From: an uncultured Pseudobdellovibrionaceae bacterium
Lineage (GTDB): Bacteria; Pseudomonadota; Alphaproteobacteria; Micavibrionales; Micavibrionaceae
Assembly: GCA_964409255.1 (NCBI GenBank)
Contig: CAYPCP010000001.1
Span: 1 to 49,795 of the forward strand
Direction of reading: 5' to 3'
Length of the DNA: 49,795 nucleotides
Under the pieces are notes generated by a model that worked only from the letters and a program-made list of their open reading frames with translations, did no database searches and was not told the origin of the DNA. Shown one piece after another: positions 23,223-49,496 of this stretch (positions are counted from its first letter, which is position 1; each line of letters opens with the position of its first letter). Made by a program: the position numbers and the translations under genes.

Positions 23223-24071
23223 ATGATGCTCCTCCGCCTTTCCGTTTTCCTGCTGGCCTTGTCACTTCCGGCGATGGCTTTCGCCCAGAACGCGACCAAA
23301 CTTCCCGAAGTGCCCGCCGCCATTCAGGACCTCGTCGATCGCGGCGCGCAGATCCGCTATCTGGGCAAAAAACACGGCATGGACGGCTGGATCACGATCT
23401 ATCAGGGGCAGGAGCAATATTATTACGTCACCCCCGACAAACAGGGGTTCGTGATGGGCGTCCTGTTCGACAAGGACGGCGCGATGGCCACCGTCGAACA
23501 GGTGCGTAAGCTGCAGGCCGAAGGCGGCGATGTGCTCGACTTCCTCGCGATGGATGCGCCCGCCAAGCCCGAACCCGCCCTGAAATCCGTCGGTGATGTG
23601 AAAAATCCCGCCACCCCGGCTGAAAAAATGCTGGCCGACGTCGAAAACAGCAATTCGATCGCGCTGGGCAATAAAGACGCGCCGGTCATCTATTCCTTCG
23701 TCGATCCGAACTGCCCGCACTGCCATGATTTCATGAACGACCTGCGCAAGGACTATATCGAAAAAGGCCTGATCCAGGTGCGCATCATCCCGGTCGGTTT
23801 CAACGAAATGTCGCTCTCTCAGGCCGCTTTCCTGCTGGCCGCGCCCGATGCCGCGGACCGCTGGTTCAAGCATCTCGATGGCGACACGGCGGCCCTGCCG
23901 ACCGACAGCAATGTCAGCACCCAGGGCGTTCAGAAAAATCTCGCCCTGATGCAGGCGTGGAAATTCACCGTCACGCCGCTTTCGGTTTACAAGGGCCGCA
24001 ACGGCGATATCAAGATCGTCCGGGGCCGGGTGAAGGACCTCAACGCCCTTTTGGCCGATCTGCCGTCGTAA
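23223..24071 (+). CDS. Periplasmic thiol:disulfide interchange protein, DsbC/DsbG-like
   Basis: Signal peptide MMLLRLSVFLLALSLPAMAFA. N-terminal dimerisation-like region (IRYLGKKHGMDGWITIY...YYVTPDKQGFVMGVLFDKDG). Thioredoxin fold with the CPHC active site (FVDPNCPHCHDF). Confidence 0.75.
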   Translation: MMLLRLSVFLLALSLPAMAFAQNATKLPEVPAAIQDLVDRGAQIRYLGKKHGMDGWITIYQGQEQYYYVTPDKQGFVMGVLFDKDGAMATVEQVRKLQAEGGDVLDFLAMDAPAKPEPALKSVGDVKNPATPAEKMLADVENSNSIALGNKDAPVIYSFVDPNCPHCHDFMNDLRKDYIEKGLIQVRIIPVGFNEMSLSQAAFLLAAPDAADRWFKHLDGDTAALPTDSNVSTQGVQKNLALMQAWKFTVTPLSVYKGRNGDIKIVRGRVKDLNALLADLPS

Positions 24072-24184
24072 AACCCGCCTTCCATAGGCTTTGACGGGCA
24101 CGGCAAAGGGACATAATATAGTGTCCCGAAGCGGGCCGTGTCGGTTTCCGCCATAAATGTGAGAGTTTTCTAAAAACACCCGCC

Positions 24185-25303
24185 ATGGCCATGGACCAAC
24201 GAAGCGCCTTCCTCATCGAACTCCTCGACAAGCTCGGCGTCCCGCTGATGGAAGCGGTGCAGGCGCATTCCCGCCCGGATTCACCGCCGGCGCAGGAAGC
24301 GGGCACGCTGGCCGCGCTGCTGGGGCAATCGGTGCAGCTCGGCCTGTCCGTGGCACAAAAGCTCGATCTTCGTGAAGGGCAGGGGGATGCCGACGCCGTC
24401 CGTCTGGCGCTGGCCGCGATGTCCGCCAAGCTGGTGGGCGAAAGCTACCGCCTTCAGGGCCGCGTCCCGGCGGAAAACGATACCGCGCGCCTGACCCGCG
24501 CACTCGAAGCCGTGCTGACATTTGCCGACAATTTCACCCCCTCCGCCGAACATACCGCCCGTCTGCGCACCGCGGGCGCGGAAAAGCCGCTTTTCGACAT
24601 GGCGCAAAGCCAGGTTTTTTACCTGAGCGCGATGGAGCCTGTCCTCGGCGCGATCGCGGAATTCCCCTTCGGCCAGAACGAAACGGCGATGATCCAGACG
24701 ACCGCCGAACGGCTGCAGCAACGCGCCGCCATGCTGCGCGAGGCGATGATCGGCGCGTCCGCCGAAAAGGCCGAAAGCAGCTTCGCCGAATTGATGATAT
24801 TGCAGTCTCTGGCCCGGATTTACGCCGATTGCCACCGTGGCGAAACCGCCCGTGTGGCGGCCTCGAACGGGGATGTCAGCCCGTCCGTGGACCCGGTGTG
24901 GAAAGCGTTCGATCTGCGTCTGGCCATGCTGGAAACGCTGCTGAATGTTGCGGTTCCGGGCGATGCGCCAGAGGCCGCCGCGCCCCCGCCCCCGCAGCAA
25001 AACGTGCCCATCAATCCCCCCGCTCAGATGACGGTCCCGGCCCCTGAAATGGTGCAGCCGGAACCTGTCCCAATGCCGCAGCAAAACCTCGCCCCGGTGC
25101 AGCAATCCGCCCCTGCGGCCCCGCCCGCCGCCGGCGGCCCGATGGGCTTTTTTGCAAAAAAACCGGCCGATGCGGTACCGTCGGCTCCGCCGGTGCAAAA
25201 CGATCAACCTGCGGCGCCTGCCGCCCCGTCCGCGCCGCCCGAACCGGGTAATCCGATGTCCTTCTTCAAGGGCGGCAAAAAGGACGAATCTTCCGGCCAA
25301 TAG
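24185..25303 (+). CDS. Hypothetical protein (helical N-terminal half, Pro/Ala/Gln-rich C-terminal half)
   Basis: 372 aa. The plus-strand frame reads like protein, while the antisense 24281..25369 frame is Arg/Gly/His-rich noise. Repeated PMGFFAKKP / PMSFFKGGKK motifs near the C-terminus. No family recognised. Confidence 0.65.
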   Translation: MAMDQRSAFLIELLDKLGVPLMEAVQAHSRPDSPPAQEAGTLAALLGQSVQLGLSVAQKLDLREGQGDADAVRLALAAMSAKLVGESYRLQGRVPAENDTARLTRALEAVLTFADNFTPSAEHTARLRTAGAEKPLFDMAQSQVFYLSAMEPVLGAIAEFPFGQNETAMIQTTAERLQQRAAMLREAMIGASAEKAESSFAELMILQSLARIYADCHRGETARVAASNGDVSPSVDPVWKAFDLRLAMLETLLNVAVPGDAPEAAAPPPPQQNVPINPPAQMTVPAPEMVQPEPVPMPQQNLAPVQQSAPAAPPAAGGPMGFFAKKPADAVPSAPPVQNDQPAAPAAPSAPPEPGNPMSFFKGGKKDESSGQ

Positions 25304-25340: not shown

Positions 25341-25760
25341 ATGACAAAAATCCTTGCCGCATGCCTCATGCTCGCTGCGCAGACCTACGCGGTCCCGCCG
25401 GCGGTGCTCGTGGGCATCCATCAGGTCGAAGGCGGCAAGATCGGGCAGGCGGTCGGCCCCAATGAAAACGGCACCTATGACCTCGGCCCGATGCAGATCA
25501 ACACCCTCTGGATCCCCGAACTGTCCCAGAACTGGGGCGTCAGCGAACAAACCGCCCTCAAATGGGTGCGGGACGATCCCTGTACAAATATGGGGGTCGC
25601 CGCATGGATCCTGCGCGGCCATATCGACGAAACCAAATCCCTGTCCAAGGCGATCGCGCATTATCATTCCCGCACGCCGCATCATGGCTCCGCCTATAAA
25701 TCCAAGGTCGTGAGCGCCATGCGCAGCAAAGGCCTGATCCGCGACAGCGCCACCCGCTGA
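25341..25760 (+). CDS. Secretion-system-associated lytic transglycosylase (SLT/VirB1-like)
   Basis: Signal peptide MTKILAACLMLAAQTYA. HQVEGGKIGQAVGPNENGTYDLGPMQINTLWIPEL matches the E...N.NG(S/T).D.G.MQIN pattern of VirB1/TrbN-type muramidases. Confidence 0.8.
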   Translation: MTKILAACLMLAAQTYAVPPAVLVGIHQVEGGKIGQAVGPNENGTYDLGPMQINTLWIPELSQNWGVSEQTALKWVRDDPCTNMGVAAWILRGHIDETKSLSKAIAHYHSRTPHHGSAYKSKVVSAMRSKGLIRDSATR

Positions 25761-25914: not shown

Positions 25915-26445
25915 ATGCCGGGACGCATGATTCGGGGTTTCACAGACATTTTTTCTGGTTCTACACTCGCGCTGATTGGCGCGGTGTGTGCCGTTGGCCT
26001 TGCCGGGTGCGAACCCATCAAGCGCGATCCGCAGGTTGTCGCGACGCCGGATAAGGTTTCGCTCATGATGGCGGAAGCCGCGGACAAGGCCTCCAACGCC
26101 CTTGAAACGCTGGCCGCCGTCGAACAAAACAAATCGCCGGGCGTCGCCGTCCAGCCTATTCACAACGCGCCGCCGGAACTGCAGCGCGCCGTGACGGTGA
26201 ACTGGGTCGGCCCGCCGGAACAGGTCACGAAAACGCTCGCCGAACGCGCCAGCTATTCTTTTATCGCTGTGGGGAATCGCCCGCCGGTGCCGCCGATCGT
26301 GAATATCGACGTTGAAGGCGAACCGGTTATCGACGTCCTGCGCGACGTCGGCCTGCAGCTCGGCGTGCGCGGCGACATCAAGGTCGACAGCGTCCGCAAA
26401 ATCATTGAACTTCATTACGCGCCGGTGACCGGGCTGGGGGGCTGA
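25915..26445 (+). CDS. dotD: Type IVB secretion lipoprotein DotD (TraH-like)
   Basis: Lipobox LAGC. The C-terminal VTVNWVGPPEQVTKTLAERASYSFIAVGNRPPVPPIVNIDVEGEPVIDVLRDVGLQLGVRGDIKVDSVRKIIELHY parallels Legionella DotD (...VDWSGPIEELTARIAKAAHFRFRVLGKSPSVPVLISISTKDESLAEILRDIDYQAGKKASIHVYPNSQVVELRY, from memory). Confidence 0.9.
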   Translation: MPGRMIRGFTDIFSGSTLALIGAVCAVGLAGCEPIKRDPQVVATPDKVSLMMAEAADKASNALETLAAVEQNKSPGVAVQPIHNAPPELQRAVTVNWVGPPEQVTKTLAERASYSFIAVGNRPPVPPIVNIDVEGEPVIDVLRDVGLQLGVRGDIKVDSVRKIIELHYAPVTGLGG

Positions 26446-26449
26446 CCGT

Positions 26450-27301
26450 ATGCGCTCGCCATTCGCTCCGCGTTTTCTCCTGACATTGATCGCCGCTCTG
26501 GCGATCGGTGCCGTTGCATGCGCGGGCGCGGCGTCGGCGTCGCTTCTGGATGATGCGGATGATCCGCCGCCGCCATCGCTCAGCGAACTGCAATCCCTGC
26601 CCAAGGAAAATAAAAACATCGAAAGCGGCATGCCGATCGATATTCGCGGCGACGCGATGAAAGAATCCGCGCTGTCTTATGGCGCCCGTGGCGGTCTTGC
26701 GTGGCGCACGTTTGAAATTCGTCAGGAAATGGAAACCCGCGCCCGTTACATGGACAAGGTGTTCGATTTCCGCCAGCTGTTGATCCCCGCGCAATCGGGC
26801 CTGCTGATCGAACCGCCGGTAATCTCCGAACAGCTCGATGCGATGATCATCGATTCAAGCGGTCAGAACGCCGCCGTGGCGGATCAGGTGCTTAATATCG
26901 GCCGCAATGCCCGCATCGTTTCCGCGCCGCGCACATGGCGTGCCTATCTGGAACGCCAATGGGGCGATGTTTCGCCGCCGCCCGATATCCTGCGTCCTGA
27001 AAACCCGCTGGAACGCGATCAATGGAATGCCGCCGTTGCCGAAGGCTGGAAAGCCGGCGTTCAACAGGCCGATGATATTTTCCAAACCGATCTGAATAAA
27101 CTGGTTGCCGATTACCAAGGGATGATCCGGTATCGCACCCTTCTTTCCCAGGGCATGGTATCGCCGCCTTATGCGCTTCAAACCGACCGCGGTGTCACCG
27201 GCGGCGGTAGCGAAATGCGCGTTGGCGACCGTGCCTTGACCATCACCGCGCCCCCCGCCCTCAAGCCCCAGTATAATCAATGGTCGCCCGCAGACCGATA
27301 A
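26450..27301 (+). CDS. dotC: Type IVB secretion lipoprotein DotC (TraI-like)
   Basis: N-terminal signal with Cys (AIGAVAC). ALSYGARGGLAWR, LLIEPPVISE, RTWRAYL, MIRYRTLLSQGMVSPPYALQTDRGVTGGGSEMRVGDRALTITAPPAL parallels Legionella DotC (..MILYRKLLAMNMVSPPYVSHTDLGVTGDGSEIHIDDRVLRITALPEL, from memory). It starts 4 nt after the dotD stop. Confidence 0.92.
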   Translation: MRSPFAPRFLLTLIAALAIGAVACAGAASASLLDDADDPPPPSLSELQSLPKENKNIESGMPIDIRGDAMKESALSYGARGGLAWRTFEIRQEMETRARYMDKVFDFRQLLIPAQSGLLIEPPVISEQLDAMIIDSSGQNAAVADQVLNIGRNARIVSAPRTWRAYLERQWGDVSPPPDILRPENPLERDQWNAAVAEGWKAGVQQADDIFQTDLNKLVADYQGMIRYRTLLSQGMVSPPYALQTDRGVTGGGSEMRVGDRALTITAPPALKPQYNQWSPADR

Positions 27302-28449
27302 GCCTTCTTAAATCGAAGGACAGCGTCGCCGAAACATGGATCGATGAACCCACGCGGTTTACCGATGCGCATGTCGATCCGTTCATTCTGTGGTGCGTGA
27401 AGAAAAACTCGTCCGATATTTCCATCCAGACCGACCGGCCGATTTACAACGAAATTTACGGCACGCTCTATCCCGGCACGTTCCGCCCGATCGACGCGGC
27501 CGACATGGGCGTGTTCCTGCATAAAATTTACGGGCCGGATGCCACTGCGCGTCTGGCGTCGGGAACCGATCTCGATCTGTCTTACGAAATCCGCCCCGAT
27601 CGTTATACGCGCGTGCGCTTTCGTGTGAACGTTACGCCGATCCTGTCCCGTGGCCGTGATTCTGCGCAGATCACAATGCGCGTCCTACCCAGCGAACCGC
27701 CGACGATGGAAGATCTCAACGTCGAAGAGGCGATTATCAAGGCCTGGAATCCGCGGCAGGGCATGGTCGTTATCACCGGCCCGACGGGTTCGGGGAAAAC
27801 CACGCTGCTTGCCGCCGGTATCCGCATGTTGATCGAGCGCAAGCGCGGGGCCGGAAAAATCGTCTGTTACGAAGCGCCGATCGAATATGTGTATGACGCG
27901 ATCAAATCGCCGCGCTCCCTGATTTCACAAACTGAAATTCCGCGCCACCTGCCGGACTTCGCCCGCGGCGTGCGCAACGCGCTGCGCCGTAAACCGAACA
28001 TCATCCTGGTGGGTGAGGCGCGGGACAAGGAAACGATTTCCGCCGCGATCGAAGCCTCGCAAACCGGCCACACCGTGTATACGACGACCCACACGGTCGG
28101 CGTGTCCGCGACGATCCAGCGTATGGTCGCCACCTTCGATCCGGGCGAGCGTTCCGAACGCGCGTACGCGCTCATGGAAACGATCCGCCTGATCGTGACC
28201 CAGACGCTGGTGCCGAAGGTTGGCGGGGGCCGTCTGGGCGTGCGGGAATGGATGGTGTTCTCGGACGAGGTCCGCGATAAATTCCTGTCCATGGACTTCA
28301 AGCTCTGGCCCGCCGAGATCCAGCGTATTATCCAGTTCAACGGCCGCACCATGGCCAATTCCGCCGGTATCGCCTTCGATGCCGGATTAATCGACCGCCG
28401 CACTTATATTATGCTATCATCGAGTACGGGCGCCGGTGGCGGCGATTAA
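27280..28449 (+). CDS. dotB: Type IVB secretion ATPase DotB (PilT/TraJ-like)
   Basis: IDEPTRFTDAHVDPF, ITGPTGSGKTTLLAA (Walker A), SQTEIPRHLPDFARGVRNALRRKPNIILVGEARD, TGHTVYTTTHT. Near-colinear with Legionella DotB as I remember it. Overlaps the dotC 3' end by 22 nt. Confidence 0.95.
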   Translation: MVARRPISLLKSKDSVAETWIDEPTRFTDAHVDPFILWCVKKNSSDISIQTDRPIYNEIYGTLYPGTFRPIDAADMGVFLHKIYGPDATARLASGTDLDLSYEIRPDRYTRVRFRVNVTPILSRGRDSAQITMRVLPSEPPTMEDLNVEEAIIKAWNPRQGMVVITGPTGSGKTTLLAAGIRMLIERKRGAGKIVCYEAPIEYVYDAIKSPRSLISQTEIPRHLPDFARGVRNALRRKPNIILVGEARDKETISAAIEASQTGHTVYTTTHTVGVSATIQRMVATFDPGERSERAYALMETIRLIVTQTLVPKVGGGRLGVREWMVFSDEVRDKFLSMDFKLWPAEIQRIIQFNGRTMANSAGIAFDAGLIDRRTYIMLSSSTGAGGGD

Positions 28450-28470: not shown

Positions 28471-28770
28471 ATGGGCGTCAGAGAAGATACAGAAGAAGAA
28501 CGGGTCAACTGGCACTGGCGGAATACCATGCGCCCGGTCCGCTTTTTCGGCCTTGATGCCCGCGCCGCGTGGCCGTTTTGTGTGCTTTTGGTCTATTTCC
28601 GTCCGATTTCCCTGTTTCTGACCATCGTGATTACGGTCGTCTTCGTCCAACTGGAACGAAAAGGCCTGTCCTTCGATTCCGCTCTGCGCGCGTTCCGGAA
28701 CTGGATATTGGGCCAGCGCCGCCCGGCCTGGTTGTCCGTGCGCCGCCGCCGCATGGTCGATTACGGCTAA
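28471..28770 (+). CDS. icmT: Type IVB secretion protein IcmT (TraK-like)
   Basis: 99 aa. HWRNTMRPVRFFGLDARAAWPFCVLLVYFRPISLFLTIVITVVFVQLERKGLSFDSALRAFRNWILG parallels the IcmT/TraK pattern HWRDSAR..KFF..DA.AAFPLLLFLLHI..WTF....LER.....VFLRWLR. Confidence 0.8.
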   Translation: MGVREDTEEERVNWHWRNTMRPVRFFGLDARAAWPFCVLLVYFRPISLFLTIVITVVFVQLERKGLSFDSALRAFRNWILGQRRPAWLSVRRRRMVDYG

Positions 28771-28871
28771 AATCCGCCAGAAAATCATCCCCTTGAGTCT
28801 TGTCATTTGGTGCGTGCCGTTCTATCGTGCGGCTATTCTTTCAGCCGCCAAAAATTCAAGGGATGTGCCGC

Positions 28872-29957
28872 ATGATGCGCTCGATCGCAATGTCTTCCGT
28901 TTTTGCTCTGGGTCTTTTCGCCGCCGCGCCCGCGTTGGCCGGTTTTGAATGGGTTCCCCCCGCGCAGGCGCCCGCCCCCGTGCCGCAGCAACAGGCCGCG
29001 CAGCCTGACATGCAATCGATGCCGTCCTACGGCTACGCGCCGCAGGGCCAGATGATGCAGCCGACGCCGATGCCCGCGCCCGCCATGACGATGCACTACC
29101 CGCCGATGCAGGAACAAGGTTATTACGCCGGGGCGCAGGCCTTCGCGAATCCGGTTCCGCCCGCGCCGGTCCCGTCCGCTTCCGCCGGCGGCCTGACGAT
29201 CAATCCCTATCCGCTGGTTCAGGCGGGCTATGCGCCCACGATGATGAATACCGGCACGGTCGAAGGCGCGATGCTGTCCGCCTCGAACACGCTCAATCCG
29301 GTGCAACTGGGTAACGGCATGACCACGGGCGGCAAGGCGCGTCCGATCGCGCCAAGCATTCCCGCCGCCGCGCCGCAGATGATGCAACAGGGCGCCGCGA
29401 TGCAGCCATCGATCAATATGGGTATGGCACCCACCGCCGGGACAAGCCTTAGCGCGATGCCCGGTGGCAATCCCGCGCCGATGGCGGTCTATGGTTATGA
29501 TGGCCAGCCTGTATCCGGTGCGTATGCCGCGCCGCAGGTCATGCGCGCGCCGATCGCGCCGCCCCCGGCGCCGGTTGCGGCCGCCCCGCTGACGCCGCCG
29601 CCCGCTGTGATGGATCGCGGACAGGCCGATAATAATTATCCCGTCCACGCCCAGACGGCGATGATGCAGCCGCCGGTGGAAACGCCGCGTCCGCCAATGG
29701 CGCAACCGGCATCGCTGCCCGCGCAAAGCAATCTTCCCGACGCTGTCGGTTTCGGCAAAGACCTGCCGCTGGCGCTGGCCCTGTCGCAGATCATTCCCGG
29801 CGATTACGCCCTGTTCTTTGAAAGCGCGGTCGATTCCGAAACGACCGTGTCGTGGCAAGGCGGCAAGGCCTGGGATCAGGTGCTTCAGGAAATGCTCGCG
29901 CCGCTGGGTCTGCGCGCTGTCATTCAACCCAACCTCGTGATGATCCGCAGTGCTTAG
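28872..29957 (+). CDS. Secreted Pro/Gln/Ala/Met-rich protein with a C-terminal TcpQ/PilL-like domain (tentative)
   Basis: Track ORF starts at TTG 28800. ATG 28872 (AAGGGA 10 nt upstream) gives the signal peptide MMRSIAMSSVFALGLFAAAPALA. A long low-complexity middle, then DAVGFGKDLPLALALSQIIPGDYALFFESAVDSETTVSWQGGKAWDQVLQEMLAPLGLRAVIQPNLVMIR, which resembles the TcpQ/PilL C-terminal domain. The antisense ORF 28833..29927 is Arg/His-rich. Confidence 0.6.
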   Translation: MMRSIAMSSVFALGLFAAAPALAGFEWVPPAQAPAPVPQQQAAQPDMQSMPSYGYAPQGQMMQPTPMPAPAMTMHYPPMQEQGYYAGAQAFANPVPPAPVPSASAGGLTINPYPLVQAGYAPTMMNTGTVEGAMLSASNTLNPVQLGNGMTTGGKARPIAPSIPAAAPQMMQQGAAMQPSINMGMAPTAGTSLSAMPGGNPAPMAVYGYDGQPVSGAYAAPQVMRAPIAPPPAPVAAAPLTPPPAVMDRGQADNNYPVHAQTAMMQPPVETPRPPMAQPASLPAQSNLPDAVGFGKDLPLALALSQIIPGDYALFFESAVDSETTVSWQGGKAWDQVLQEMLAPLGLRAVIQPNLVMIRSA

Positions 29958-30408
29958 GCCTTCGCCGGAAAAACCGCGTTTTTCGCTGCCGGAAACGGCG
30001 CTGGTGATTATCGTCGCCGCGGTGCTGATCGGCGGAATTTACGGCCTGACCAATCTTTTCATGCGCAATGACCGTGTCGAGGCCGCGCTCGCGACGCTCG
30101 CATGGCTGCAGCAAAATCCGCAAAGCCCCGAAGCCGATCCGATGGACCCGTGGGGGAAACCGATCGCCGTCGTCATGACGGATCAGAATTTTTCCGTGAC
30201 GTTTGCCGCCGTGCCGCCCGGCGCATGCAAAAAGATGGCGAAAAACTTCAACCGTTCGGATGCGTCGTTCATTTCATTGAGCATCAACAGCACGGTATTC
30301 CGCGAAGGGGCGGAGGAATTCAACGCCCAGCCGATCGCCAAAGCCTGCAGCGAAAAAGAGAACGCCATCATGATATGGACGTTCTCTCTTCTCGTTGAGC
30401 CTGCCTGA
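29950..30408 (+). CDS. Type IV pilin/pseudopilin-like protein (non-canonical leader)
   Basis: GTG start overlaps the upstream stop. ..EKPR/FSLPETALVIIVAAVLIGGIYGL has Glu at +5 and a hydrophobic helix, but Arg rather than Gly at -1. DPMDPWGKPI (pseudopilin DPWG motif). C-terminal Cys pair (GACKKM....KACSEKE). Confidence 0.55.
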   Translation: MLRPSPEKPRFSLPETALVIIVAAVLIGGIYGLTNLFMRNDRVEAALATLAWLQQNPQSPEADPMDPWGKPIAVVMTDQNFSVTFAAVPPGACKKMAKNFNRSDASFISLSINSTVFREGAEEFNAQPIAKACSEKENAIMIWTFSLLVEPA

Positions 30409-31540: not shown

Positions 31541-31570
31541 GACAACGTCTCCTTAAAAAAATTCTACCGC

Positions 31571-34021: not shown

Positions 34022-34079
34022 AAATCCGTGCCTTTCGACGTTCCGGGGCCGCACCGTACGGCCCTTCGAAAGGGATAAA

Positions 34080-34095
34080 TGCAAGGATGGTGCCA
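34080..34095 (-). promoter_or_regulatory. Sigma54 (-24/-12) promoter upstream of flgK
   Basis: The minus strand reads TGGCAC-CATCC-TTGCA, matching the TGGCAC-N5-TTGCW consensus at every position. It lies in the 103-nt gap between the stop of 34125..36095 and the flgK ATG, leaving a ~50-nt leader. Confidence 0.65.
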
Positions 34096-41741: not shown

Positions 41742-43762
41742 GGGCTGCCTCCCGTCTTGATGGGCGCGCCCGTTTTCGTGATGATGGCGATTTCGCTGCT
41801 GACGGTTTCCTGCTCTTTTTCAAGCAGCGTTTCAAGGAACACCGCAAGGATCGCCTCGCCGCGCAGGAGGCTGTCGTAAATATCGCGGTCCTGCATGATC
41901 TCAAGCGCTTCCATCACGGCGATCTTGCGCTCGACGTTGGCGGGCTTGTCATACAGCTCGGTGTAGAAAACCGGGTCCTCGTAAATCTTTTTCGTCAGCA
42001 CTTCCATCTGCGCGAAATAGCTCGGCTCTTCCCCGATAAGCTTGTTGATCTCCTCGACGTCGAGGCCGAGGTCGCGGATGAACGCCTTCATGAACGGCGC
42101 GACTTCCTTGGCGCCGCGCGACTTCATCGCCGCGATCGCCGCGACGGAGTTCTGCCCGACCGACCGTTTCGCCGTCAATGCCCGCAGGTCCATATAGAAA
42201 GGATATGCGTCGGGGCGGACGTCGCCCTTGTCGTTCGCCAAAAGGGAACGGTTCATTTTTTCCGGCACGTCGTGCGCGTACAGATTGGACGACATGGCGA
42301 AAATGTCTTTTTCGTCATTCGTGTTTTCCGGCTTGGTGAAATCGACATCGAGGCTCAGCGGCACGTCGAGCGTGTTGGTGAAATCGATGTCACGGTTCTT
42401 GCGCGCGGCGGGAATGTTTTTCTTGCACAATATTTCAAGCCCGGCCTTGCCTTCCGGGCCTTCGCCGTTGTCGTTCTTGTCGCAATATTCATCAAGGAAT
42501 TGCTGCAGGCGGCTGAGCTTGTCGGAATCGCCGCCGGTCTGCGAAACGACGTCGCCGGATTTAAGCGAGCGTTTGAGCATGTGCTGCGCGAACGCGACCT
42601 TCGAAAGATCGGCGCGGCGTTCGGATGCGGCAAGGCTTTGCGACGCGGTGCCGAATTCGCACAGGCCTTCGCTCGGGTGGTAATCCTTGTGCGCTTTCGC
42701 CGTCATGTGCTGGAACAGGCGCTGCGTTTCCATCTGGTGTTTCGCGTCGAAAAACTGGCCGAACATTTCCACCTGATTGTAAGCCGCGGCGGTCATCTGC
42801 GAGGTCATGATCATGAGCGCGGGGACCATGTTCTCGATATACCATTTCGACACGAGCCACGTGCGGTACGTTTCAAACTCGTTGGTCATCAACGCGCGGA
42901 TGTTTTTATGGTCTTCGACGATCGGGCGGTGACAGTTGCAGCAGCTCGGGCACGTCTTCTCGCACATCGCGTTGGCGTTCTGGATGTTGTGCTGCGTGGA
43001 AATCTTTCCGGTCAGAAGATTGAGCGTCAGGCCGTTCAGGTTGAAGCTGAGGTTGATGTTCAGCCCCTTCATGATCGCATCCGTCAAACCTTTCAGGCCG
43101 CCCAGCGCCTGCGTGATGTTGCCGCCCAGCGCGCTGCCCAGCGCTTTGGTCAGGCTCTCCGCCAGCTTGGTGTCCTTCATGATGTCGGTCATCAGCTTCG
43201 ATGCGCTCGCGCCGCCGAGCGCCGCGCCGAGCTGCTTGGTGAATTCCTGCACGCCGCCCGATTGCAGCGCGGCCTGCAGCCCTTGCGAAATTCCCGGGAT
43301 TTTCGCGATGTCGGCGAGCTGGCCGATGTCTGTGATCTTGCCCAGGTTCGGCAGCGCGGTGAGCGCCGTCGACAGCGACGAATTCAGCTGCCCGCGCATC
43401 GCGCTGTTGATGACCTGACCGAGAGAGCCGAGGTCGGCGCCCATATTGGCCACGATATTCTTGGTAAGCGCTTCCGCCGTCGGCAGCGAGATATTGCCGC
43501 TTTCGACAAGCGCGTTCGTGAATTGCTCCGGCGTGAGTTTTCCGGCGGCGAAATTATTGACGAGCTGCTCGCCGATATTGTTGGGAAGGCCCGTGCCGAT
43601 CTTGGAGATGTCGAACGATGGCGAACCGCCTGTCGTGCCCGTGCTGCCGCCGGCATTCGCGGTCAGCGGTAACGCGGCCGCGAACAGAAGCAGGATCATG
43701 CAAAAAGCATGTCCCCATCCCCGGCGCTTGGTGGCGCCTGTTGCCCCGGACCACATTATCAT
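41738..43762 (-). CDS. Paralog E of the secreted Cys-cluster core family, with an N-terminal Gly/Leu/Ala/Asn-rich module homologous to that of D
   Basis: Track ORF is 41738..43828. Its first 22 codons are AT-rich, so I prefer ATG 43762 (MIMWSGATGATKRRGWGHAFCMILLLFAAALPLTANA); the start is uncertain. CEKTCPSCCNC (42932-42964). FFDAKHQMETQRLFQHMTAKAHKDYHPSEGLCEFGT, LRALTAKRSVGQNSVAAI, PSYFAQMEVLTKKIYEDPVFYTELYDKPANVERK, MQDRDIYDSLLRGE. Confidence 0.85.
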   Translation of the reverse strand: MIMWSGATGATKRRGWGHAFCMILLLFAAALPLTANAGGSTGTTGGSPSFDISKIGTGLPNNIGEQLVNNFAAGKLTPEQFTNALVESGNISLPTAEALTKNIVANMGADLGSLGQVINSAMRGQLNSSLSTALTALPNLGKITDIGQLADIAKIPGISQGLQAALQSGGVQEFTKQLGAALGGASASKLMTDIMKDTKLAESLTKALGSALGGNITQALGGLKGLTDAIMKGLNINLSFNLNGLTLNLLTGKISTQHNIQNANAMCEKTCPSCCNCHRPIVEDHKNIRALMTNEFETYRTWLVSKWYIENMVPALMIMTSQMTAAAYNQVEMFGQFFDAKHQMETQRLFQHMTAKAHKDYHPSEGLCEFGTASQSLAASERRADLSKVAFAQHMLKRSLKSGDVVSQTGGDSDKLSRLQQFLDEYCDKNDNGEGPEGKAGLEILCKKNIPAARKNRDIDFTNTLDVPLSLDVDFTKPENTNDEKDIFAMSSNLYAHDVPEKMNRSLLANDKGDVRPDAYPFYMDLRALTAKRSVGQNSVAAIAAMKSRGAKEVAPFMKAFIRDLGLDVEEINKLIGEEPSYFAQMEVLTKKIYEDPVFYTELYDKPANVERKIAVMEALEIMQDRDIYDSLLRGEAILAVFLETLLEKEQETVSSEIAIITKTGAPIKTGGSP

Positions 43763-43982
43763 TCTGATTTTTTTATAACTTCTCCAACTACAGAAAATTT
43801 TATCATATTCAAAAAGCAAAACGCACATTCATTTCCGCCGACGCGCGGAGAAGGGGCTTATGGAATTTGTGCGGAGCCTTTCGAATATGGTCAAATAACA
43901 ATATAAAGTGGTTTTTTACTTCGCGCATCTGATACATAATGGAATCAGATCATTTTTGTCCTGTCCGGACGATTAGGAATTC

Positions 43983-44717
43983 ATGAGCGACTCTAGCGAT
44001 AAATCTGCCAACCCGCGGAACATCCGGCCGGCGCCCCGCGGCCCGGCGGCGGGCGTGCCGAAAAAAGGCGCGAAGGTAAAGCCTGACGCCAAGGATGTCA
44101 GCTCGCTGGGCAAGGTCGTCCTGCGCAATGAATTCTACCGTGACGGGTACCGCCTGGCGCTGCGCGTCGCGGTTATCCAGTGTTTCATCATTGTCGGCTT
44201 GATTGCCGTAATGTTCTACGTGGTCAAGGTGCATCAACCGGAAAACCGTTATTTCGCAACGACCGAGGATGGCCGCCTGATCCCGATGGTGTCCCTGACC
44301 CAGCCGAACCTGTCGACCCCCGCGCTGATGTCGTGGGTGGCCCAGTCGGCGACCGAGGTCATGACCTTCGGCTTCAACGATTACCGCCGCAGGTTGCAGG
44401 AAGCCTCGCGCCATTTCACCCGCCGCGGCTGGGAAAGCTTCACCACCGCGCTTCAGCGCGCCCGCATCATCGAATCGATCGAGGAAAATTCCCAGGTCGT
44501 CACCGCCGCGCCGCGCGGCGCGCCGATCCTTCAATCCGAAGGCATCATCGGCGGGCAATATCAATGGGTCGTTCAGATCCCCATGGTTCTCACCTATCAA
44601 TCCGGGTCGAAAACACGTTCCGATTACTGGATCGTGACGCTGGTGGTGGTGCGCGTGCCGCGCCTCGAAAGCCCCAACGGTGTCGGCATCGCGCAATGGA
44701 TCGCCGCGCCGGGCTGA
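43983..44717 (+). CDS. icmL: Type IVB secretion protein IcmL/DotI (TraM-like)
   Basis: 244 aa. LRNEFYRDGYRLALRVAVIQCFIIVGLIAVMF (the FYRD.YR + TM hallmark), ...WVAQSATEVMTFGFNDYRRRLQEASRHFTRRGWESF..., ...VVRVPRLESPNGVGIAQW, colinear with Legionella IcmL as I remember it. Confidence 0.9.
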   Translation: MSDSSDKSANPRNIRPAPRGPAAGVPKKGAKVKPDAKDVSSLGKVVLRNEFYRDGYRLALRVAVIQCFIIVGLIAVMFYVVKVHQPENRYFATTEDGRLIPMVSLTQPNLSTPALMSWVAQSATEVMTFGFNDYRRRLQEASRHFTRRGWESFTTALQRARIIESIEENSQVVTAAPRGAPILQSEGIIGGQYQWVVQIPMVLTYQSGSKTRSDYWIVTLVVVRVPRLESPNGVGIAQWIAAPG

Positions 44718-44846
44718 TCGGACGCCTTTCTTGGCTGAGGGTAACCTGCGCGCAAGGCATATACAGGGCGGCTTTCCCGCGATATGGTAGGGCGGGGCAT
44801 GCAGATTCGCATTCGGCCTTTCTTTAGGTGTACGGTAATTTTCGAC

Positions 44847-46247
44847 ATGATTTCCAGACGGTTTCTTTACGGATTTTTTGCGCTGCTTACCTCGGTCTCG
44901 CTGCTCTCGGCGGTCGGGGGCGTTCATGCGCAGGACCCCGTCACGCCCCAGCAATCGCAACAATCGCCCGCGCCCTCCGAAAACGCGTTGATCGATCCCG
45001 AAGCCGCCGCTGCCGCTGCCTTGCAAAGGGTCCCGGCCCTGCCGGACGGCACCTCCGCCACGCCGGAGGCGGACGCCGCCGCCGCTGCGGCTGCCGCCGC
45101 GATGCAATCCCCGGCGCCCGCCGCGACAACGCCCGCGGATCAGGCCGTGCCCGGCACCGCGCTGCCGTCCACGCCCGCGCAACAGGCGCAGCAGGCCTAT
45201 ATACAAACGTCGCCCGAAACCGAAACCGTAGCGCCCGCGCCCTCCGCTGAACGCCCGGTCGTGCCGCTTTCCGCCCCCGGGGATTCACCCGAAGCTCAGG
45301 CCGCCGCCGCGCAGGCCGCGAACGACGCGCTGCCGATCTCCCGCGTGCGCATCAACACCGAAGGTTTCGGTCTGGCGGGCACACGTAATATAGATGTCTA
45401 TCCGGGCGACAACCCGGCATCCGACGTCGATAACGAAGCGCTGCAGGCCGAAATCCGTCAGGAAGCCTTCGACGCCGCGACCACGGGCCTTTTCCCGCTG
45501 TCGCCCGACCATATCCGCGAATTGCTGCGTCAATATGACGACACCCAGCGCGCGGCGCAGTCCCCGCCCTACGACATGCCGAAACCCGAAGTCGTCGTGC
45601 AGACCGTCTCGATGGACCCCGGCGTCGCGCCACCCGTCATTAAAACCGCCGTCGGTCACGTGACGACGGTGAACATGCTCGATCTGACGGGCGCGCCATG
45701 GCCGGTGCAGGACATTACATGGGCCGGCGATTTCGAAGTCGTCGAACCGGAAGAGGGCGGGCACATCATCCGCATCACGCCGATGGGGAAATTCACCTAC
45801 GGCAACATGGCCGTGCGCCTTCTCACGCTGAAAACGCCGATCACGTTTACATTGCGCGTTGAGCGCGACACCGTTCATTACCGCGTTGATGCGCGCATCC
45901 CGGAACTGGGACCCTTCGCGCAGGCGCAGCTGATGGAAGGCTCCGCCCAGCTTGCGGCGGGGAATTCGACGCTGACCACCGTGCTGGACGGTGTACCGCC
46001 GAGCGGCTCCGTCCGTCTGGCCGTGGCGGGCGCCGATGGCCGCACCACCGCCTATAAAGTCGGCGCGCTCACCTATGTGCGCACGCCGCTGACGCTGCTC
46101 TCGCCGGGATGGCAAAGCTCCGTTTCCTCCGCCGACGGCATGAATGTTTATGCGCTCGAAGACACGCCCGTCCTGCTGTTGTCGGATCAGGGAAATTTCC
46201 TGCGCGCGAAGCTAAGCGAAGAAAAGGATCTCTTCGATGACCAATAA
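44847..46247 (+). CDS. icmK: Type IVB secretion outer-membrane-complex protein IcmK/DotH (TraN-like)
   Basis: Preferred ATG 44847 (MISRRFLYGFFALLTSVSLLSAVGGVHA). A long Ala/Pro/Gln-rich linker, then the DotH-like body: VGHVTTVNMLDLTGAPWPVQDITWAGDFEVVEPEEGGHIIRITPMGKFTYGNMAVRLLTLKTPITFTLRVERDTVHYRVDARIPELGP. Confidence 0.88.
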   Translation: MISRRFLYGFFALLTSVSLLSAVGGVHAQDPVTPQQSQQSPAPSENALIDPEAAAAAALQRVPALPDGTSATPEADAAAAAAAAAMQSPAPAATTPADQAVPGTALPSTPAQQAQQAYIQTSPETETVAPAPSAERPVVPLSAPGDSPEAQAAAAQAANDALPISRVRINTEGFGLAGTRNIDVYPGDNPASDVDNEALQAEIRQEAFDAATTGLFPLSPDHIRELLRQYDDTQRAAQSPPYDMPKPEVVVQTVSMDPGVAPPVIKTAVGHVTTVNMLDLTGAPWPVQDITWAGDFEVVEPEEGGHIIRITPMGKFTYGNMAVRLLTLKTPITFTLRVERDTVHYRVDARIPELGPFAQAQLMEGSAQLAAGNSTLTTVLDGVPPSGSVRLAVAGADGRTTAYKVGALTYVRTPLTLLSPGWQSSVSSADGMNVYALEDTPVLLLSDQGNFLRAKLSEEKDLFDDQ

Positions 46248-47676
46248 TAACGACAACGACGTCGATAACGACCTCGATCTGGATCTCGACGAACTCGACA
46301 GCGACAGCGGCTTCGACGATTTCAGCAAGAAAGGCACGCTCGGCGACCTCTGGCGCAACAACCCGATGGTCAAGGTCGGCGTTATCCTCGCCGCGTTCGT
46401 CGTCATCGTCGCGGGCGTCATCCTGTTCGGCGGCAAGGGTGAAAAACTGCCGCCCTCGCGCCTGAGCGGCACGTCCGATGTCACCGAAGCGCCCGGTTCC
46501 AACGAAGTTTCCGCCTCCTATGCGCAGGCGATCGAAGAAGAAAACACTCGCCGCATCGAAGAAGCGCTGCGCCAGAACGACAGCGCCGTGCCGATGCCGG
46601 TCGAGCCGCCCAAAGGCACGCTCGGCCTGCAGGTTGACGAACCCGCCGAAGAAGATCCTCTCGACCGCTGGCGCCGCATGCAGGAAGAACGCATCCAGCA
46701 GCAGCAGATCGTGAATCAGGAAATGGTCGAACCGCCCGCGCCGCCGGAACCGGTCGATACGAAAACCCCCGCCGTGAACGCGATGGCGCAGGCGATGTCG
46801 ATGCAGATGGAATCGGTCCTTTCCAATCAGGAAATCAAAGGCCCGCACGTGAAAAGCATCAGCACGATGGCCTATCTCGAAGGGCTGGAGGAAAAGAAAC
46901 GCGCCGCGCGCGAAGCTGAACTCGCCCGTCAGCAGCAGCTGATCGGCGGCGTCGGCGGCAGCCAGATCGAAAACATCATCATCCCCGCGGGCACGATCGA
47001 ATACGCCCAGCTGATTACCGAAGCGAATACCGATGCGCCCGGCCCGATCATGGCCCAGATCGCTTCCGGCCCGCTGGCGGGTGCGCGCCTGATCGGTTCT
47101 TTCCGTTCGACCGAAGAATATCTGACGCTGCAATTCAATACGGTCGTGATCGACGGCGTGGCCGAAGGCGCGAACGCCGTGGCGATCGACCCGAACACGA
47201 CGCTTCCGGGCATGGTCACGGAAATCGACCGCCGTTACTGGAAACGCATTATCCTTCCGGCGGCGGGCGCGTTCGTCGAGGGCCTGGCCTCCGCGATTTC
47301 CGATTCCGGCTCGACCAGCATTTATATCTCCGACAATAACGTCGTCCAGAGCACCGCGAACCGCGACAACCGCGAGGAAGTGGCCTCCGGTATCGCCGAG
47401 GCGGGCGAGGAGCTGCGCGACATTCTCGAAGACGAAGCCGACGCGACCCGCCCGATGCTGCGCGTGGCGGCGGGAACGCCGATCGGCGTGCTGTTCGTCT
47501 CCCCGGTGATCGAGGGCGACGACCTCGTCGAACAGAACCAGCGCGAGCAGGACCGCCTGATCCAGATGCAGCAATTCCAGCAGCTTCAGCAGCCCTTTGT
47601 CCCGGCTTTCCCCTTTGGCGACACCAGCCCCTCCGCGGGTTCCGGCATGCAAACCACCGGGACCGGTATACAATGA
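46237..47676 (+). CDS. icmE: Type IVB secretion protein IcmE/DotG (TraO-like; VirB10/TrbI-type C-terminal domain)
   Basis: 479 aa. Acidic N-terminus, TM helix VKVGVILAAFVVIVAGVILFG, and the VirB10-like domain IIIPAGTIEYAQLITEANTDAPGPIMAQIASGPLAGARLIGSF...VAIDPNTTLPGMVTEIDRRYWKRIILPAAGAFVEGL. Overlaps the icmK 3' end by 11 nt. Confidence 0.88.
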   Translation: MTNNNDNDVDNDLDLDLDELDSDSGFDDFSKKGTLGDLWRNNPMVKVGVILAAFVVIVAGVILFGGKGEKLPPSRLSGTSDVTEAPGSNEVSASYAQAIEEENTRRIEEALRQNDSAVPMPVEPPKGTLGLQVDEPAEEDPLDRWRRMQEERIQQQQIVNQEMVEPPAPPEPVDTKTPAVNAMAQAMSMQMESVLSNQEIKGPHVKSISTMAYLEGLEEKKRAAREAELARQQQLIGGVGGSQIENIIIPAGTIEYAQLITEANTDAPGPIMAQIASGPLAGARLIGSFRSTEEYLTLQFNTVVIDGVAEGANAVAIDPNTTLPGMVTEIDRRYWKRIILPAAGAFVEGLASAISDSGSTSIYISDNNVVQSTANRDNREEVASGIAEAGEELRDILEDEADATRPMLRVAAGTPIGVLFVSPVIEGDDLVEQNQREQDRLIQMQQFQQLQQPFVPAFPFGDTSPSAGSGMQTTGTGIQ

Positions 47677-47768
47677 TCCCCAGCGCCTTGAAGCGACGGG
47701 GCTTTTCCGATAAAAGGAAAGCTTAAAAAACAGCCAGCGGCCTTACGGTGCGCGGCCTTTGCCGGATA

Positions 47769-49496
47769 ATGACGATGCAGGAAAAACCCGAAAACGACCC
47801 GACCTTCACCGACGATCTCGACGATGAATTCATCGACGATGAATTCGGCGACGAATACGCGGACGATCTCGGCGACGATGCGGCCTATGACGCCGACGCG
47901 GATCACGACGCTGTCGGCGGCGGCGATGGCGACGACATGGCCTATCTCGACGATGAATTCGGCGACGAAGACTGGGAAGATGAGGAAGAAGACGGCGTGG
48001 CCGCTCCCCTCACTGGCGCCGGTGCGCAAAAAGAAAAGAAAAAAGGCGGCCTCGATCTCAGCTTCAATACCAAGGTGATCGCCGGCGCCGTTATCGTCGG
48101 CGTGTGCGTTCTCGTCTGGCAGGTCGTCACCAAAAAACCGCAGATGATCGAAAACTTCACGACGGCGCTCAGCATGACAGGCGCGACCGACGGTCCTGTG
48201 TTCGGCGACAATCAGCCGCCGCCGCCTGAAGCGCCCGCGCCGATTCCGGCCGATGAAAACAATCCCGCGCTGCTCGACGGTCCGGACATGGCGGGCGACA
48301 ATGTTCCCCCGATGCCCGCGCCCGTCACGCCGCCCGAAGCGATGAGCCCCGAAGAACAGGCGAACGCCGAGGTCCTGACGCCGATGCCGGACCCGAATGC
48401 GCCGGATGGCGCGCAGGTTCCGCGCTCGCCCGATCAATCGCCGCCGACGCCCGTTTATTCGATCGACGCGCGGAGCAGCAATAACGACGACGCGCCGAAC
48501 AAGGCCGAAGAGATGCTGAAATCCCGCCTTGCCGCGCGCGAACAGCAAAACGCGTCCGCAGACGCGTTTGGCGAAGAAACACCAGCCCCTGTGCCGCCGC
48601 CTGCCGCCGACGTTATTCCCCCGGCCCCGACGCCGGATGTTGTGGTGGAAGCGCCGCCTGCGCCTGAAGTCGTGCCGCCTGCCGCGATGCAGGTTGTCGT
48701 GCCCGTGCCGCCCGAAAATCTCGCCGCCGCCGAAGCCGCCACGGCTGAGCTGAACCAGAAAATGGACAGCATCATCCAGGGCTTCTCCCAGATTGGCACG
48801 CGTATCGACGAGATCAATAACAACAGTAACAATCAGATCAACGCGCTGCGCGACGAACTGAAAAACGAAATCGCTTCCGTCCGCGACGAAGTGAAAAACG
48901 CGCCCGCTCCCGCGCCGTCGGCCGATAACAACGCCGCCGCCGTGAACGAACAGGTGACGCAGCAGATCACCGCCGTGCGTGAGGAAATGAAAACCGCGCT
49001 CAGCCAGATCAAGGAAGAAATCAAAAACGCGCCTGCACCCGCTGCCGCGCCAGCGCCCGCATCATCCGGCGTGAGCGAGCAGCAGCTCAGCGACATGCGT
49101 CAGGAAATGCAAAATCAATTCGCGAAAATGCGCGAAGAGATGAAATCCGAAATCGCGAAAGTGCCCGCCGCCGCACCGGCCCCGGCACCTGTACGTGAAG
49201 CTGCGCCCGCGCCGCGTCAGGACGCCGAACAAAAACCCGCGCCTGTAAAACAGGCCGAAGCACCGAAACAGGCCGCGCCGAAAAAAGCCGCCGCACCGTC
49301 CACCGCATCGCGCGGCGGCGCCTGGCAGCTCAAAGCCGCGAAGCCGGGCAAGGCCTGGGTATCGCGCGCCGGATCGAACAATATTCAGGGCGTGAGCGTT
49401 GGCGACACGCTCGACGGGATCGGCCGCATCACCGCGATCAGTTTCGCGGGCGGCCGCTGGGTCGTTCAGGGCACCAATGGGCGCATCAATCAGTAG
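47769..49496 (+). CDS. icmG: IcmG/DotF-like (TraP-like) protein, strongly expanded
   Basis: Track ORF starts at GTG 47748; ATG 47769 or 47775 is plausible. Very acidic N-terminus (DDLDDEFIDDEFGDEYADD...), one TM helix (VIAGAVIVGVCVLVWQVV), a Pro-rich region, three helical repeats each ending K(N/V)(A/P)PAPA. The C-terminal GAWQLKAAKPGKAWVSRAGSNNIQGVSVGDTLDGIGRITAISFAGGRWVVQGTNGRI resembles the DotF C-terminal domain (W.(I/L)RA..PG(R/K)AW(L/V)......V..G..(I/L).G.G.(I/V)..I). Its position after icmE fits. Confidence 0.6.
   Translation: MTMQEKPENDPTFTDDLDDEFIDDEFGDEYADDLGDDAAYDADADHDAVGGGDGDDMAYLDDEFGDEDWEDEEEDGVAAPLTGAGAQKEKKKGGLDLSFNTKVIAGAVIVGVCVLVWQVVTKKPQMIENFTTALSMTGATDGPVFGDNQPPPPEAPAPIPADENNPALLDGPDMAGDNVPPMPAPVTPPEAMSPEEQANAEVLTPMPDPNAPDGAQVPRSPDQSPPTPVYSIDARSSNNDDAPNKAEEMLKSRLAAREQQNASADAFGEETPAPVPPPAADVIPPAPTPDVVVEAPPAPEVVPPAAMQVVVPVPPENLAAAEAATAELNQKMDSIIQGFSQIGTRIDEINNNSNNQINALRDELKNEIASVRDEVKNAPAPAPSADNNAAAVNEQVTQQITAVREEMKTALSQIKEEIKNAPAPAAAPAPASSGVSEQQLSDMRQEMQNQFAKMREEMKSEIAKVPAAAPAPAPVREAAPAPRQDAEQKPAPVKQAEAPKQAAPKKAAAPSTASRGGAWQLKAAKPGKAWVSRAGSNNIQGVSVGDTLDGIGRITAISFAGGRWVVQGTNGRINQ

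Follow-up and report, generated by a model that had tools for sequence, protein, structure and literature searches.

A chromosomal Dot/Icm-like secretion locus with an array of putative IcmX-like paralogs and an embedded flgK-flgL operon in uncultured Micavibrio-like Alphaproteobacteria

We analysed a 49,795-nucleotide (nt) stretch of DNA (hereafter, the window; contig CAYPCP010000001.1 of GenBank assembly GCA_964409255.1) from an uncultured Micavibrio-like alphaproteobacterium. We conclude that its right half carries the main locus of a vertically inherited, chromosomal type IVB secretion system (T4BSS) of the Dot/Icm kind. Two colinear sets of secretion genes, dotDCB-icmT and icmLKEG, enclose a 13.4-kb block on the opposite strand that holds five paralogous genes and a flgK-flgL operon with its own sigma-54 promoter, a layout that is conserved across the clade. 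Predicted folds suggest that the paralogs work like IcmX, the protein that sits on the DotA channel, and the machine would translocate proteins into a target cell, either a prey bacterium or a eukaryote, rather than conjugate DNA. For this reading as a whole, with all of its parts taken jointly, we estimate a probability of about 0.7.

Gene assignments are based on Pfam and NCBIfam profile searches of the open reading frames (ORFs) of the window and on direct comparison with chains from Legionella cryo-electron microscopy structures. Both the profile hidden Markov models and the solved-structure chains bear out the initial annotation of the region as a type IVB (Dot/Icm-IncI) locus, together with its DotD, DotC, DotB, IcmT, IcmL, IcmK and IcmE assignments. 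The core secretion genes are as follows.

25915-26445, plus strand: DotD/TraH lipoprotein (PF16816, 2.3e-34; NF033882, 6e-28)
26450-27301, plus strand: DotC/TraI (PF16932, 4e-80; Legionella DotC chain 6x62_AC, 6.7e-43)
27280-28449, plus strand: DotB ATPase (TIGR02524, dot_icm_DotB, 3.6e-118, 395 bits; DotB chain 6geb, 3.8e-106)
28471-28770, plus strand: IcmT/TraK (NF038220, 1.9e-24, above cutoff)
43983-44717, plus strand: IcmL/DotI (PF11393, 2e-65; NF038072, 7e-60, above cutoff)
44784-46247, plus strand: IcmK/DotH (PF12293, 7e-83; Legionella IcmK chain 6x62_DH, 9.6e-51)
46237-47676, plus strand: IcmE/DotG (TraO) (TrbI, 5.5e-10; DotG model, 4.4e-47, against 3e-26 for TraO)
47748-49496, plus strand: coiled-coil protein at the IcmG/DotF (TraP) position (assigned by position and by weak matches of homologues in relatives)

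These genes encode the outer-membrane core of a T4BSS (DotC, DotD, DotH and a DotG with a TrbI-like C terminus), the DotB/TraJ ATPase and the inner-membrane parts IcmT/TraK and IcmL/DotI. The ORFs lie where they had first been placed, with the exception of the icmK start, which had been set at 44847 but is internal to the ORF at 44784-46247; the identity of this gene stands (PF12293). The last gene, previously called icmG (47769), is in the right position, but its ORF gave no direct DotF/IcmG match and its identity is suggested through relatives, in which positional homologues weakly match IcmG_DotF (8.5e-6 and 1.9e-4) and the ORF occupying this place in a distant locus (L144) matches IncI TraP (3.6e-5).

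Window proteins score nearer to Dot/Icm than to IncI Tra proteins (DotB, 395 bits versus 241 for TraJ; DotG, 161 versus 93 for TraO). DotB also aligns to PDB chain 6geb with 358 bits and to chain 6gef with 196, which we take to be the Legionella and the plasmid-type protein, respectively. An annotated IncK/Z plasmid has the order TraH(DotD)-TraI-TraJ-TraK, a large LPD7-domain gene, then TraL-TraM(DotI)-TraN(DotH)-TraO-TraP-TraQ...TraU-TraW-TraX-TraY. This order confirms what the initial annotation had stated of IncI plasmids, namely the succession TraH-I-J-K ... TraM-N-O-P that the left and right halves of the window locus follow and the variable slot after TraK (the TraK/TraL interval). The right half fits the Legionella order icmL-K-E-G-C-D-J-B equally well.

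To compare relatives, one genome per species was scanned with an alignment of the paralogs, and the 74 loci obtained (locus numbers below carry the prefix L) were annotated with the window proteins. Most of these species-level genomes share the succession of dotDCB-icmT, opposite-strand block and icmLKEG. In 64 of the 74 loci icmL is divergent from a paralog, in 58 a paralog is followed by flgK on the same strand, and in 46 flgL abuts the side formed by icmT, dotB and a protein with an STN domain; all three junctions occur together in 42, and absent junctions often coincide with contig ends. Complete arrays contain three (28 loci), four (5 loci) or five (20 loci) paralogs, and positional orthology is evident, with a copy of the type of window paralog 5 beside icmL and one of the type of paralog 1 beside flgK in most relatives. 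The genes of the locus are intact in relatives. Median identity to the window is 79% for DotB, 72% for IcmL, 60% for IcmK, 51% for FlgK and 35-46% for the paralogs, and DotB is 93% identical to that of the nearest relative.

The five paralogs form an operon divergent from icmL-K-E-G and are 40-50% identical to one another.

34125-36095, minus strand: IcmX-like paralog 1 (PAR1), 656 amino acids (aa), with an extra N-terminal, weakly lysozyme-like domain (family alignment; weak AggPromo_Cterm match, 4e-3)
36092-37555, minus strand: IcmX-like paralog 2, 487 aa (AlphaFold2 model with a predicted local distance difference test score (pLDDT) of 76.8; Foldseek match to 9ngy_AP1, E 1.8e-3)
37552-38922, minus strand: IcmX-like paralog 3, 456 aa, minimal form (AlphaFold2 pLDDT 78.7; Foldseek match to 9ngy_AP1, E 6.7e-3, 321 columns)
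38922-41741, minus strand: IcmX-like paralog 4, 939 aa, with an adhesin-type insert and a GGT-repeat linker (family alignment; BapA/LapF-type match, 5.6e-14, below cutoff)
41738-43828, minus strand: IcmX-like paralog 5 (PAR5), with a long N-terminal helical-repeat extension (family alignment); its true start is probably near 43760

Each paralog has a Sec-type leader, a hydrophobic segment that in all five ends in an AxA-type site; then come a cysteine cluster and a ~400-aa conserved core in which four cysteines are invariant. The N-terminal domain of paralog 1 has no sequence match in the PDB. A profile search of 1.84 billion representatives gave the overall size of the family, ~1,260 clusters at 50% identity, and individual members were drawn from the best 150 matches listed. 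Many members among the matches listed have N-terminal extensions of 200-660 aa, and a few of these extensions carry C1q, GDSL-lipase, M23 or GA domains. Neither Pfam nor NCBIfam contains a model for the family, none of its members is named, and a tblastn search of plasmids with the paralogs gave no match.

AlphaFold predicts entirely helical folds for paralogs 3 and 2, in which long helices at either end flank a middle domain. When these models were compared with 350,542 PDB chains using Foldseek, chain AP1 of entry 9ngy was the single outlier for both (probability 1.00); the next matches had E values >0.5 for paralog 3 and >1 for paralog 2. Entry 9ngy is the Legionella DotA-IcmX protochannel, and because DotA is chain FP1, we take AP1 to be IcmX by elimination from the entry title. 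IcmX consists of a signal peptide, an N-helix, an extended domain and C-helices, forms a VirB5-like pentamer on DotA and is proposed to be driven outward as far as the host membrane (bioRxiv 10.1101/2025.06.23.660953). The paralogs show the same architecture, a Sec signal peptide followed by an N-helix, an extended domain and C-helices. The models therefore suggest that the paralogs are most likely homologues or analogues of IcmX.

Several observations weigh against this reading. The TM-scores of the Foldseek matches are low (0.18-0.29), and homology to IcmX or TraW is not apparent in sequence: the paralogs have no match in the PDB, whether phmmer was run with a single sequence or a profile of 113 sequences was used, and no similarity to IcmX in Pfam or NCBIfam. 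Alignment with hhalign to IncI TraW, which we take to be the reported counterpart of IcmX, gave a probability of 0.3%; TraW itself does not match IcmX in the PDB. The paralogs could also be secreted substrates rather than structural parts, as lipase, M23 or C1q domains occur in some members of the family. DotA, with which an IcmX should pair, could not be located in this lineage (an insensitive phmmer search with IncI TraY found no match in 160 loci), and neither DotL nor DotM was located in the window or in Micavibrio-type loci. Nor is the layout invariant. At least six loci lack a junction despite enough sequence; in L069, the paralogs and flgKL lie beside secB with no T4BSS genes within the flanks; in L117 and L129, flgKL is directly beside icmL with no paralog between them in the available sequence; L059 lacks flgKL between the paralogs and the STN protein; and no flgK is present within the 6-8 kb past the paralogs in L008 and L078.

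The paralogs might instead be secreted substrates or toxins, exported by this system or by a Sec/type II secretion route, in which the ~400-aa core serves as a delivery or scaffold domain for variable N-terminal payloads and has no structural role akin to that of IcmX. The high variability of the N-terminal extensions across the family, which reach ~660 aa, the occasional GDSL-lipase, M23-peptidase, C1q and BapA-like domains and the absence of sequence similarity to IcmX are all consistent with this possibility. However, three positional types have been kept across the clade, payload-free minimal forms among them, and for each of the two models IcmX alone stands out among the fold matches. Dot/Icm effectors normally have no Sec signal peptide, whereas the paralogs do, as does IcmX. 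We consider a role as substrates unlikely and favour an IcmX-like function for the paralogs.

Downstream of the paralogs on the same strand is the second unit of the block, the flgK-flgL operon.

30416-31540, minus strand: FlgL-like hook-filament junction protein (HAP3) (NF006489, 9e-30; TIGR02550, 4e-14, below cutoffs)
31571-34021, minus strand: FlgK (HAP1), 816 aa (TIGR02492, 2.4e-77, above cutoff; Flg_bb_rod, 8e-9; FlgK_D1, 8e-36; Flg_bbr_C, 3.5e-11)
34081-34095, minus strand: sigma-54 -24/-12 promoter box TGGCACCATCCTTGC (TGGCAC-N5-TTGC, the only perfect match in the window)
34107-34124, no strand assigned: GC-rich hairpin GGCCCGGGTCCCGGGGCC, a palindrome just 3' of the paralog 1 stop, between the last paralog and the flgK promoter

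Although the flgK ORF reaches 34084, translation probably begins at the ATG at 34021; a database entry (P0121) is an identical FlgK of 816 aa. FlgK has the D1 domain and, judging from its sequence, retains at both termini the axial-protein motifs that the flagellar apparatus requires for export. The match of FlgL is weaker (4e-14, below cutoff), and the flgL-like gene is always downstream of flgK in relatives. The sigma-54 box is ~60 nt upstream of the flgK ATG. TGGCA[CT]N5TTGC is found upstream of flgK in all 63 relatives with upstream sequence, against a background of 0.024 per 400 nt, but in only 1 of 64 regions between icmL and the adjacent paralog, in either direction, and no such box was found upstream of dsbC, dotD or the other operons of the window. 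Promoters of the sigma-54 type are typical of late flagellar (class III) genes in Alphaproteobacteria, and flgK has one. A sigma-54 enhancer-binding protein that consists of AAA+ and HTH_8 domains only, without a receiver or sensor domain, is encoded 4 kb to the left of the T4BSS locus (18017-19066, minus strand) and is a candidate activator for this promoter.

The hairpin GGCCCGGGTCCCGGGGCC was reported on the plus strand, where it has a T-rich tail, whereas its continuation on the minus strand, that of the paralogs, is not T-rich; a role as terminator of the paralog operon is therefore unproven. A generic promoter and terminator scan of the block remained at background level. In length and identity, the best 120 FlgK homologues are all similar to the T4BSS-linked orthologues. 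The flgK-flgL pair is most likely the ordinary late flagellar operon of the cell, lodged permanently in the T4BSS locus. L117 and L129, which are metagenome contigs of 785 kb and 621 kb from a lineage with a DotO ~60% identical, carry flgL-flgK divergent from icmL, an arrangement indicating that the linkage of flgKL to the T4BSS reaches beyond the paralog-bearing layout.

Given this neighbourhood, the paralogs could be periplasmic or outer components of the flagellum and the whole block a flagellar island that happens to sit in a T4BSS locus. In 58 of 74 loci they immediately precede flgK on its strand, in L069 they accompany flgKL without neighbouring T4BSS genes, and hook-filament junction proteins rank second to fourth in the fold search, albeit non-significantly (E ~1). 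Yet only flgK has the sigma-54 promoter, which the paralog operon lacks, a hairpin lies between the two units in the window, and the paralogs stay by icmL where flgKL is missing from its usual place or has moved (L059, L008 and L078, as well as L060, in which flgKL has been relocated beside icmG). We find a flagellar role for the paralogs quite improbable.

The minus-strand block at 30416-43828 (flgL, flgK and five paralogs) is exactly as first described, but the initial annotation had regarded it as an interruption of the secretion genes, in a plausible slot for cargo or accessory genes. On that account the block would be an insertion or cargo module in a permissive icmT-icmL interval, like sog of IncI plasmids, and would have nothing to do with the secretion machine. 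The interval does correspond to the TraK/TraL slot, in which the IncK/Z plasmid has its large accessory gene, the block is on the opposite strand and flgKL is functionally foreign to a type IV secretion system. However, the synteny comparison places the block at the same position in most of the 74 species-level genomes, so the cargo slot is not supported; moreover, the paralogs are positionally orthologous and match IcmX in fold, and the block edges have no mobile-element genes, repeats or composition break. Synteny thus largely refutes the cargo account, which we consider highly improbable. The block is a fixed part of the locus in this clade and comprises two independent units, the paralog operon and flgK-flgL.

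The remaining core genes had been expected to the right of the window. In relatives, this proved correct for icmC-like, icmD-sized, icmJ and icmB/dotO genes but not for DotA, DotL and DotM, which are not in the locus. The genes that follow icmG there encode a TraQ/IcmC-like protein, a protein of 128-140 aa (icmD-sized), IcmJ/DotN (1e-27) and the VirB4-family ATPase IcmB/DotO, which is 28% identical over 780 aa to IncI TraU (2e-79). The TraQ/IcmC-like gene begins within about 100-250 nt past the icmG-position gene; the corresponding end of the window (49497-49795) contains a hairpin, AAAAGGTC...GACCTTTT, an AT-rich spacer of ~190 nt and an ORF of 35 codons. We found dotO in 80 metagenome loci, and it is 59-82% identical among the Micavibrio-type metagenome loci. 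Past dotO, Micavibrio-type loci continue with a ~199-aa ORF, RNase T, a histidine kinase, queC/E/F and an aminotransferase; these housekeeping genes indicate that DotA, DotL and DotM are not encoded in the locus. The ~199-aa ORF, which has no Pfam match, directly follows dotO in L088 (13003-13599) and in 35 other loci and may be a further component of the system.

Some T4BSS genes occur elsewhere. DotL/IcmO (TrbC) is encoded near dotO in a sister lineage (L124, 1e-107), and in other alphaproteobacterial metagenome-assembled genomes (MAGs) IcmO/DotL homologues are abundant and intact but stand alone among suf, lpxI and secF (L161 and L162); none of the stand-alone genes for this type IV coupling protein found in the search could be tied on an assembly to a paralog-bearing locus. 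In some lineages dotO is alone among gyrB, degP, PBP1, secA, ilvB, hisS and relA (L121, L123 and L158). Such scattered single genes fit a long-domesticated chromosomal system. That the locus is instead a decayed, non-working remnant of a conjugative IncI-type element or an integrative and conjugative element (ICE), as the absence of DotA, DotL and DotM from it and of a visible downstream gene past icmG in the window might suggest, is barely credible in the face of genes that are intact and well conserved over dozens of species (median DotB identity, 79%; nearest relative, 93%), the conservation of dotO (59-82%), the abundance of intact icmO/dotL homologues in alphaproteobacterial MAGs and the lack of any relaxase or integrase seen.

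The alphaproteobacterial, chromosomal setting proposed at the outset is borne out by housekeeping genes on the left and by Micavibrio-like relatives. The left flank encodes SecB, FxsA, a Tim44-like protein, MltA, an O-antigen ligase and tRNA-Ala, as well as MscL, the sigma-54 activator, Bax1-I, an M48 peptidase, LemA and a FIST protein. All of the relatives found are MAGs that carry the label Micavibrio, Alphaproteobacteria or similar. The species of the window is itself absent from the GTDB representatives, among which the best identity of a paralog is 50%; the closest metagenome contigs reach 64-72%. No composition break was seen. The hallmarks of a conjugative IncI-type element or ICE (relaxase, oriT, mobility genes and a patchy distribution) are not those of this locus, because the Pfam and NCBIfam scans of window ORFs showed no relaxase or integrase domain, housekeeping genes lie on both sides and the locus is present in 74 species-level genomes. 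In the window, the secB-fxsA-tim44-mltA cluster is at 12097-15191, about 8-11 kb to the left of the T4BSS locus, and in L069 (1-8600) the module of paralogs and flgKL is immediately beside secB-fxsA-tim44-mltA; the presence of the same housekeeping cluster near both points to a shared ancestral chromosomal neighbourhood.

An alphaproteobacterium had been thought an unusual host. The host assignment holds, but there is precedent: systems classed as pT4SSi were reported in seven Micavibrionales MAGs (PMC9418006), and DotH homologues are present on Bosea and Roseomonas plasmids, to which the window DotH is only ~31% identical. The published genome of the cultured Micavibrio aeruginosavorus ARL-13 was described as having no type III or type IV secretion system (PMC3189940).

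Accessory genes open the plus-strand locus and separate icmT from the block.

23223-24071, plus strand: DsbC/DsbG-like periplasmic disulfide isomerase, the first gene of the locus (NF008657 DsbG, 2e-36, above cutoff; Thioredoxin_4 and DsbC_N)
24185-25303, plus strand: conserved protein of 372 aa with a Pro/Ala-rich C terminus (sub-threshold DUF7096 match only)
25341-25760, plus strand: lytic transglycosylase (SLT, TrbN/IagB-like) (PF01464, 5e-8; TrbN, 6e-25)
28800-29957, plus strand: secreted Pro/Met/Gln-rich protein with a C-terminal STN (secretin-N/TcpQ-type) domain (STN, 1e-4, below cutoff)
29950-30408, plus strand: PilS-type pilin-like protein (PF08805, 2e-6, 28.2 bits versus a cutoff of 22)

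The first three open the locus; L042 has a homologue of the disulfide isomerase next to its locus and also one of the 372-aa protein, and the lytic transglycosylase gene is kept beside dotD in relatives. A homologue of the STN protein follows icmT in 46 of 74 relatives, whereas the pilin-like protein is lineage-specific and was found only in the closest relatives (L002/L003). Of the names 'TcpQ-like' and 'pilin-like' first given to these two genes, the second holds, with PilS above cutoff, but the first does not: no TcpQ model matched 28800-29957, and nothing was found beyond the weak C-terminal STN domain.

The far left of the window is a lower-GC cluster (0.50-0.55) of large surface proteins on the minus strand. 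One frame is stop-free throughout positions 1-5107, the only stop being just upstream of a putative start near 5107; this giant ORF (>1,700 aa, Cys/Gly/Thr-rich, with a signal peptide) runs past the left end of the window. It is accompanied by a secreted protein of 1,510 aa with RCC1 and BNR/sortilin-type repeats (6063-10595), for which the name GltB was rejected in favour of RCC1/BNR repeat protein, and by a 440-aa protein with a Peptidase_S74 (tail-fibre/endosialidase chaperone) domain (10507-11829).

If the IcmX-like reading of the paralogs is right, they would cap the DotA channel as IcmX does, and their variable domains would adapt the tip to the target. The array would thereby supply alternative or mixed tip and channel subunits that carry adhesin-like or envelope-degrading modules, and the in-locus DsbC/G-like isomerase would help to fold these cysteine-rich proteins. 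Because no relaxase was found, the machine would be expected to move proteins rather than DNA, into a prey bacterium or a eukaryote. The flgK-flgL operon is driven by its own sigma-54 promoter, separately from the paralog and T4BSS operons. A more speculative version, which we think rather doubtful, is that the paralogs form hetero-pentameric or interchangeable Dot/Icm tips, the modules of which (lysozyme-like, lipase, M23, adhesin and C1q) would bind and breach the envelope of another bacterium. This would be the first type IVB system dedicated to bacterial predation or epibiosis and not to conjugation or eukaryotic hosts, and the linkage to flgKL would reflect joint deployment in a motile attack phase.

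To our knowledge, Dot/Icm systems have been described almost exclusively in Legionellales pathogens and IncI-type plasmids, and how the central DotA-IcmX channel meets the target membrane was resolved only in 2025. Here, a domesticated Dot/Icm-like machine is found on the chromosome of small Micavibrio-like alphaproteobacteria that form a large, uncultured clade, and its presumed tip protein has multiplied into three to five ancient paralogs with swappable outer domains. Should the assigned fold be right, the clade offers a natural experiment on the diversification of T4BSS tips and a candidate route by which epibiotic predators or parasites could inject material into their targets. The analysis also singles out a family of ~1,260 clusters for which Pfam and NCBIfam have no model.

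The nearest published observation is a one-sentence mention, in a survey with MacSyFinder, of pT4SSi in seven marine Micavibrionales MAGs (Needham et al. 2022, PMC9418006). These systems, detected there as a combination of VirB4/IcmB and at least six accessory genes with no relaxase, are probably the same as that of the window locus. The survey does not describe the locus, the paralog array or the embedded flgKL, and our full-text literature searches found nothing on the locus layout, an IcmX-like array or an embedded flgKL.

The Legionella Dot/Icm system shares with the window locus homologues of DotD, DotC, DotB, IcmT, IcmL, IcmK and IcmE, to which relatives add an IcmC-like protein, IcmJ and IcmB/DotO, and as in Legionella no relaxase was seen. 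The differences are considerable. The host is a Micavibrio-like alphaproteobacterium and not a member of the Legionellales; dotDCB-icmT is fused head-on with icmLKEG into one locus; three to five IcmX-like paralogs replace a single icmX; a flgKL operon lies within the locus; no adjacent genes encode DotA, DotL or DotM; and IcmS, IcmW, IcmQ and IcmR were not detected here.

With IncI1/IncK conjugation systems (R64 Tra/Trb, mating-pair-formation type I), the locus has in common the colinear TraH(DotD)-TraI-TraJ-TraK ... TraM-TraN-TraO-TraP order, the variable interval after TraK, a DsbC-family gene, a lytic transglycosylase and a PilS-type pilin. In contrast to these plasmid systems, it is chromosomal and conserved vertically, with no relaxase or oriT seen, its DotH is only ~31% identical, and its interval holds IcmX-like genes and flgKL rather than a primase-type cargo gene.

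The nearest analogy known to us is the rvh system of the Rickettsiales, which is of type IVA (VirB) and has tandem paralogs of VirB6, the analogue of DotA. Like the locus described here, it is an alphaproteobacterial, chromosomal and non-conjugative type IV secretion system in which a component of the central channel is present as a tandem array of three to five divergent paralogs with extra domains, but rvh multiplies VirB6 and not the VirB5/IcmX analogue.

IcmX itself (9ngy, the VirB5 analogue) resembles the paralogs in its Sec signal peptide, its length of ~450 aa and its middle domain flanked by long helices at both termini. The paralogs are encoded next to dotDCB, as icmX presumably is in region I of Legionella. 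Sequence similarity to IcmX is not detectable; the protein is multiplied to three to five ancient paralogs in this clade, and these differ from IcmX in having an N-terminal cysteine cluster and large, variable extensions.

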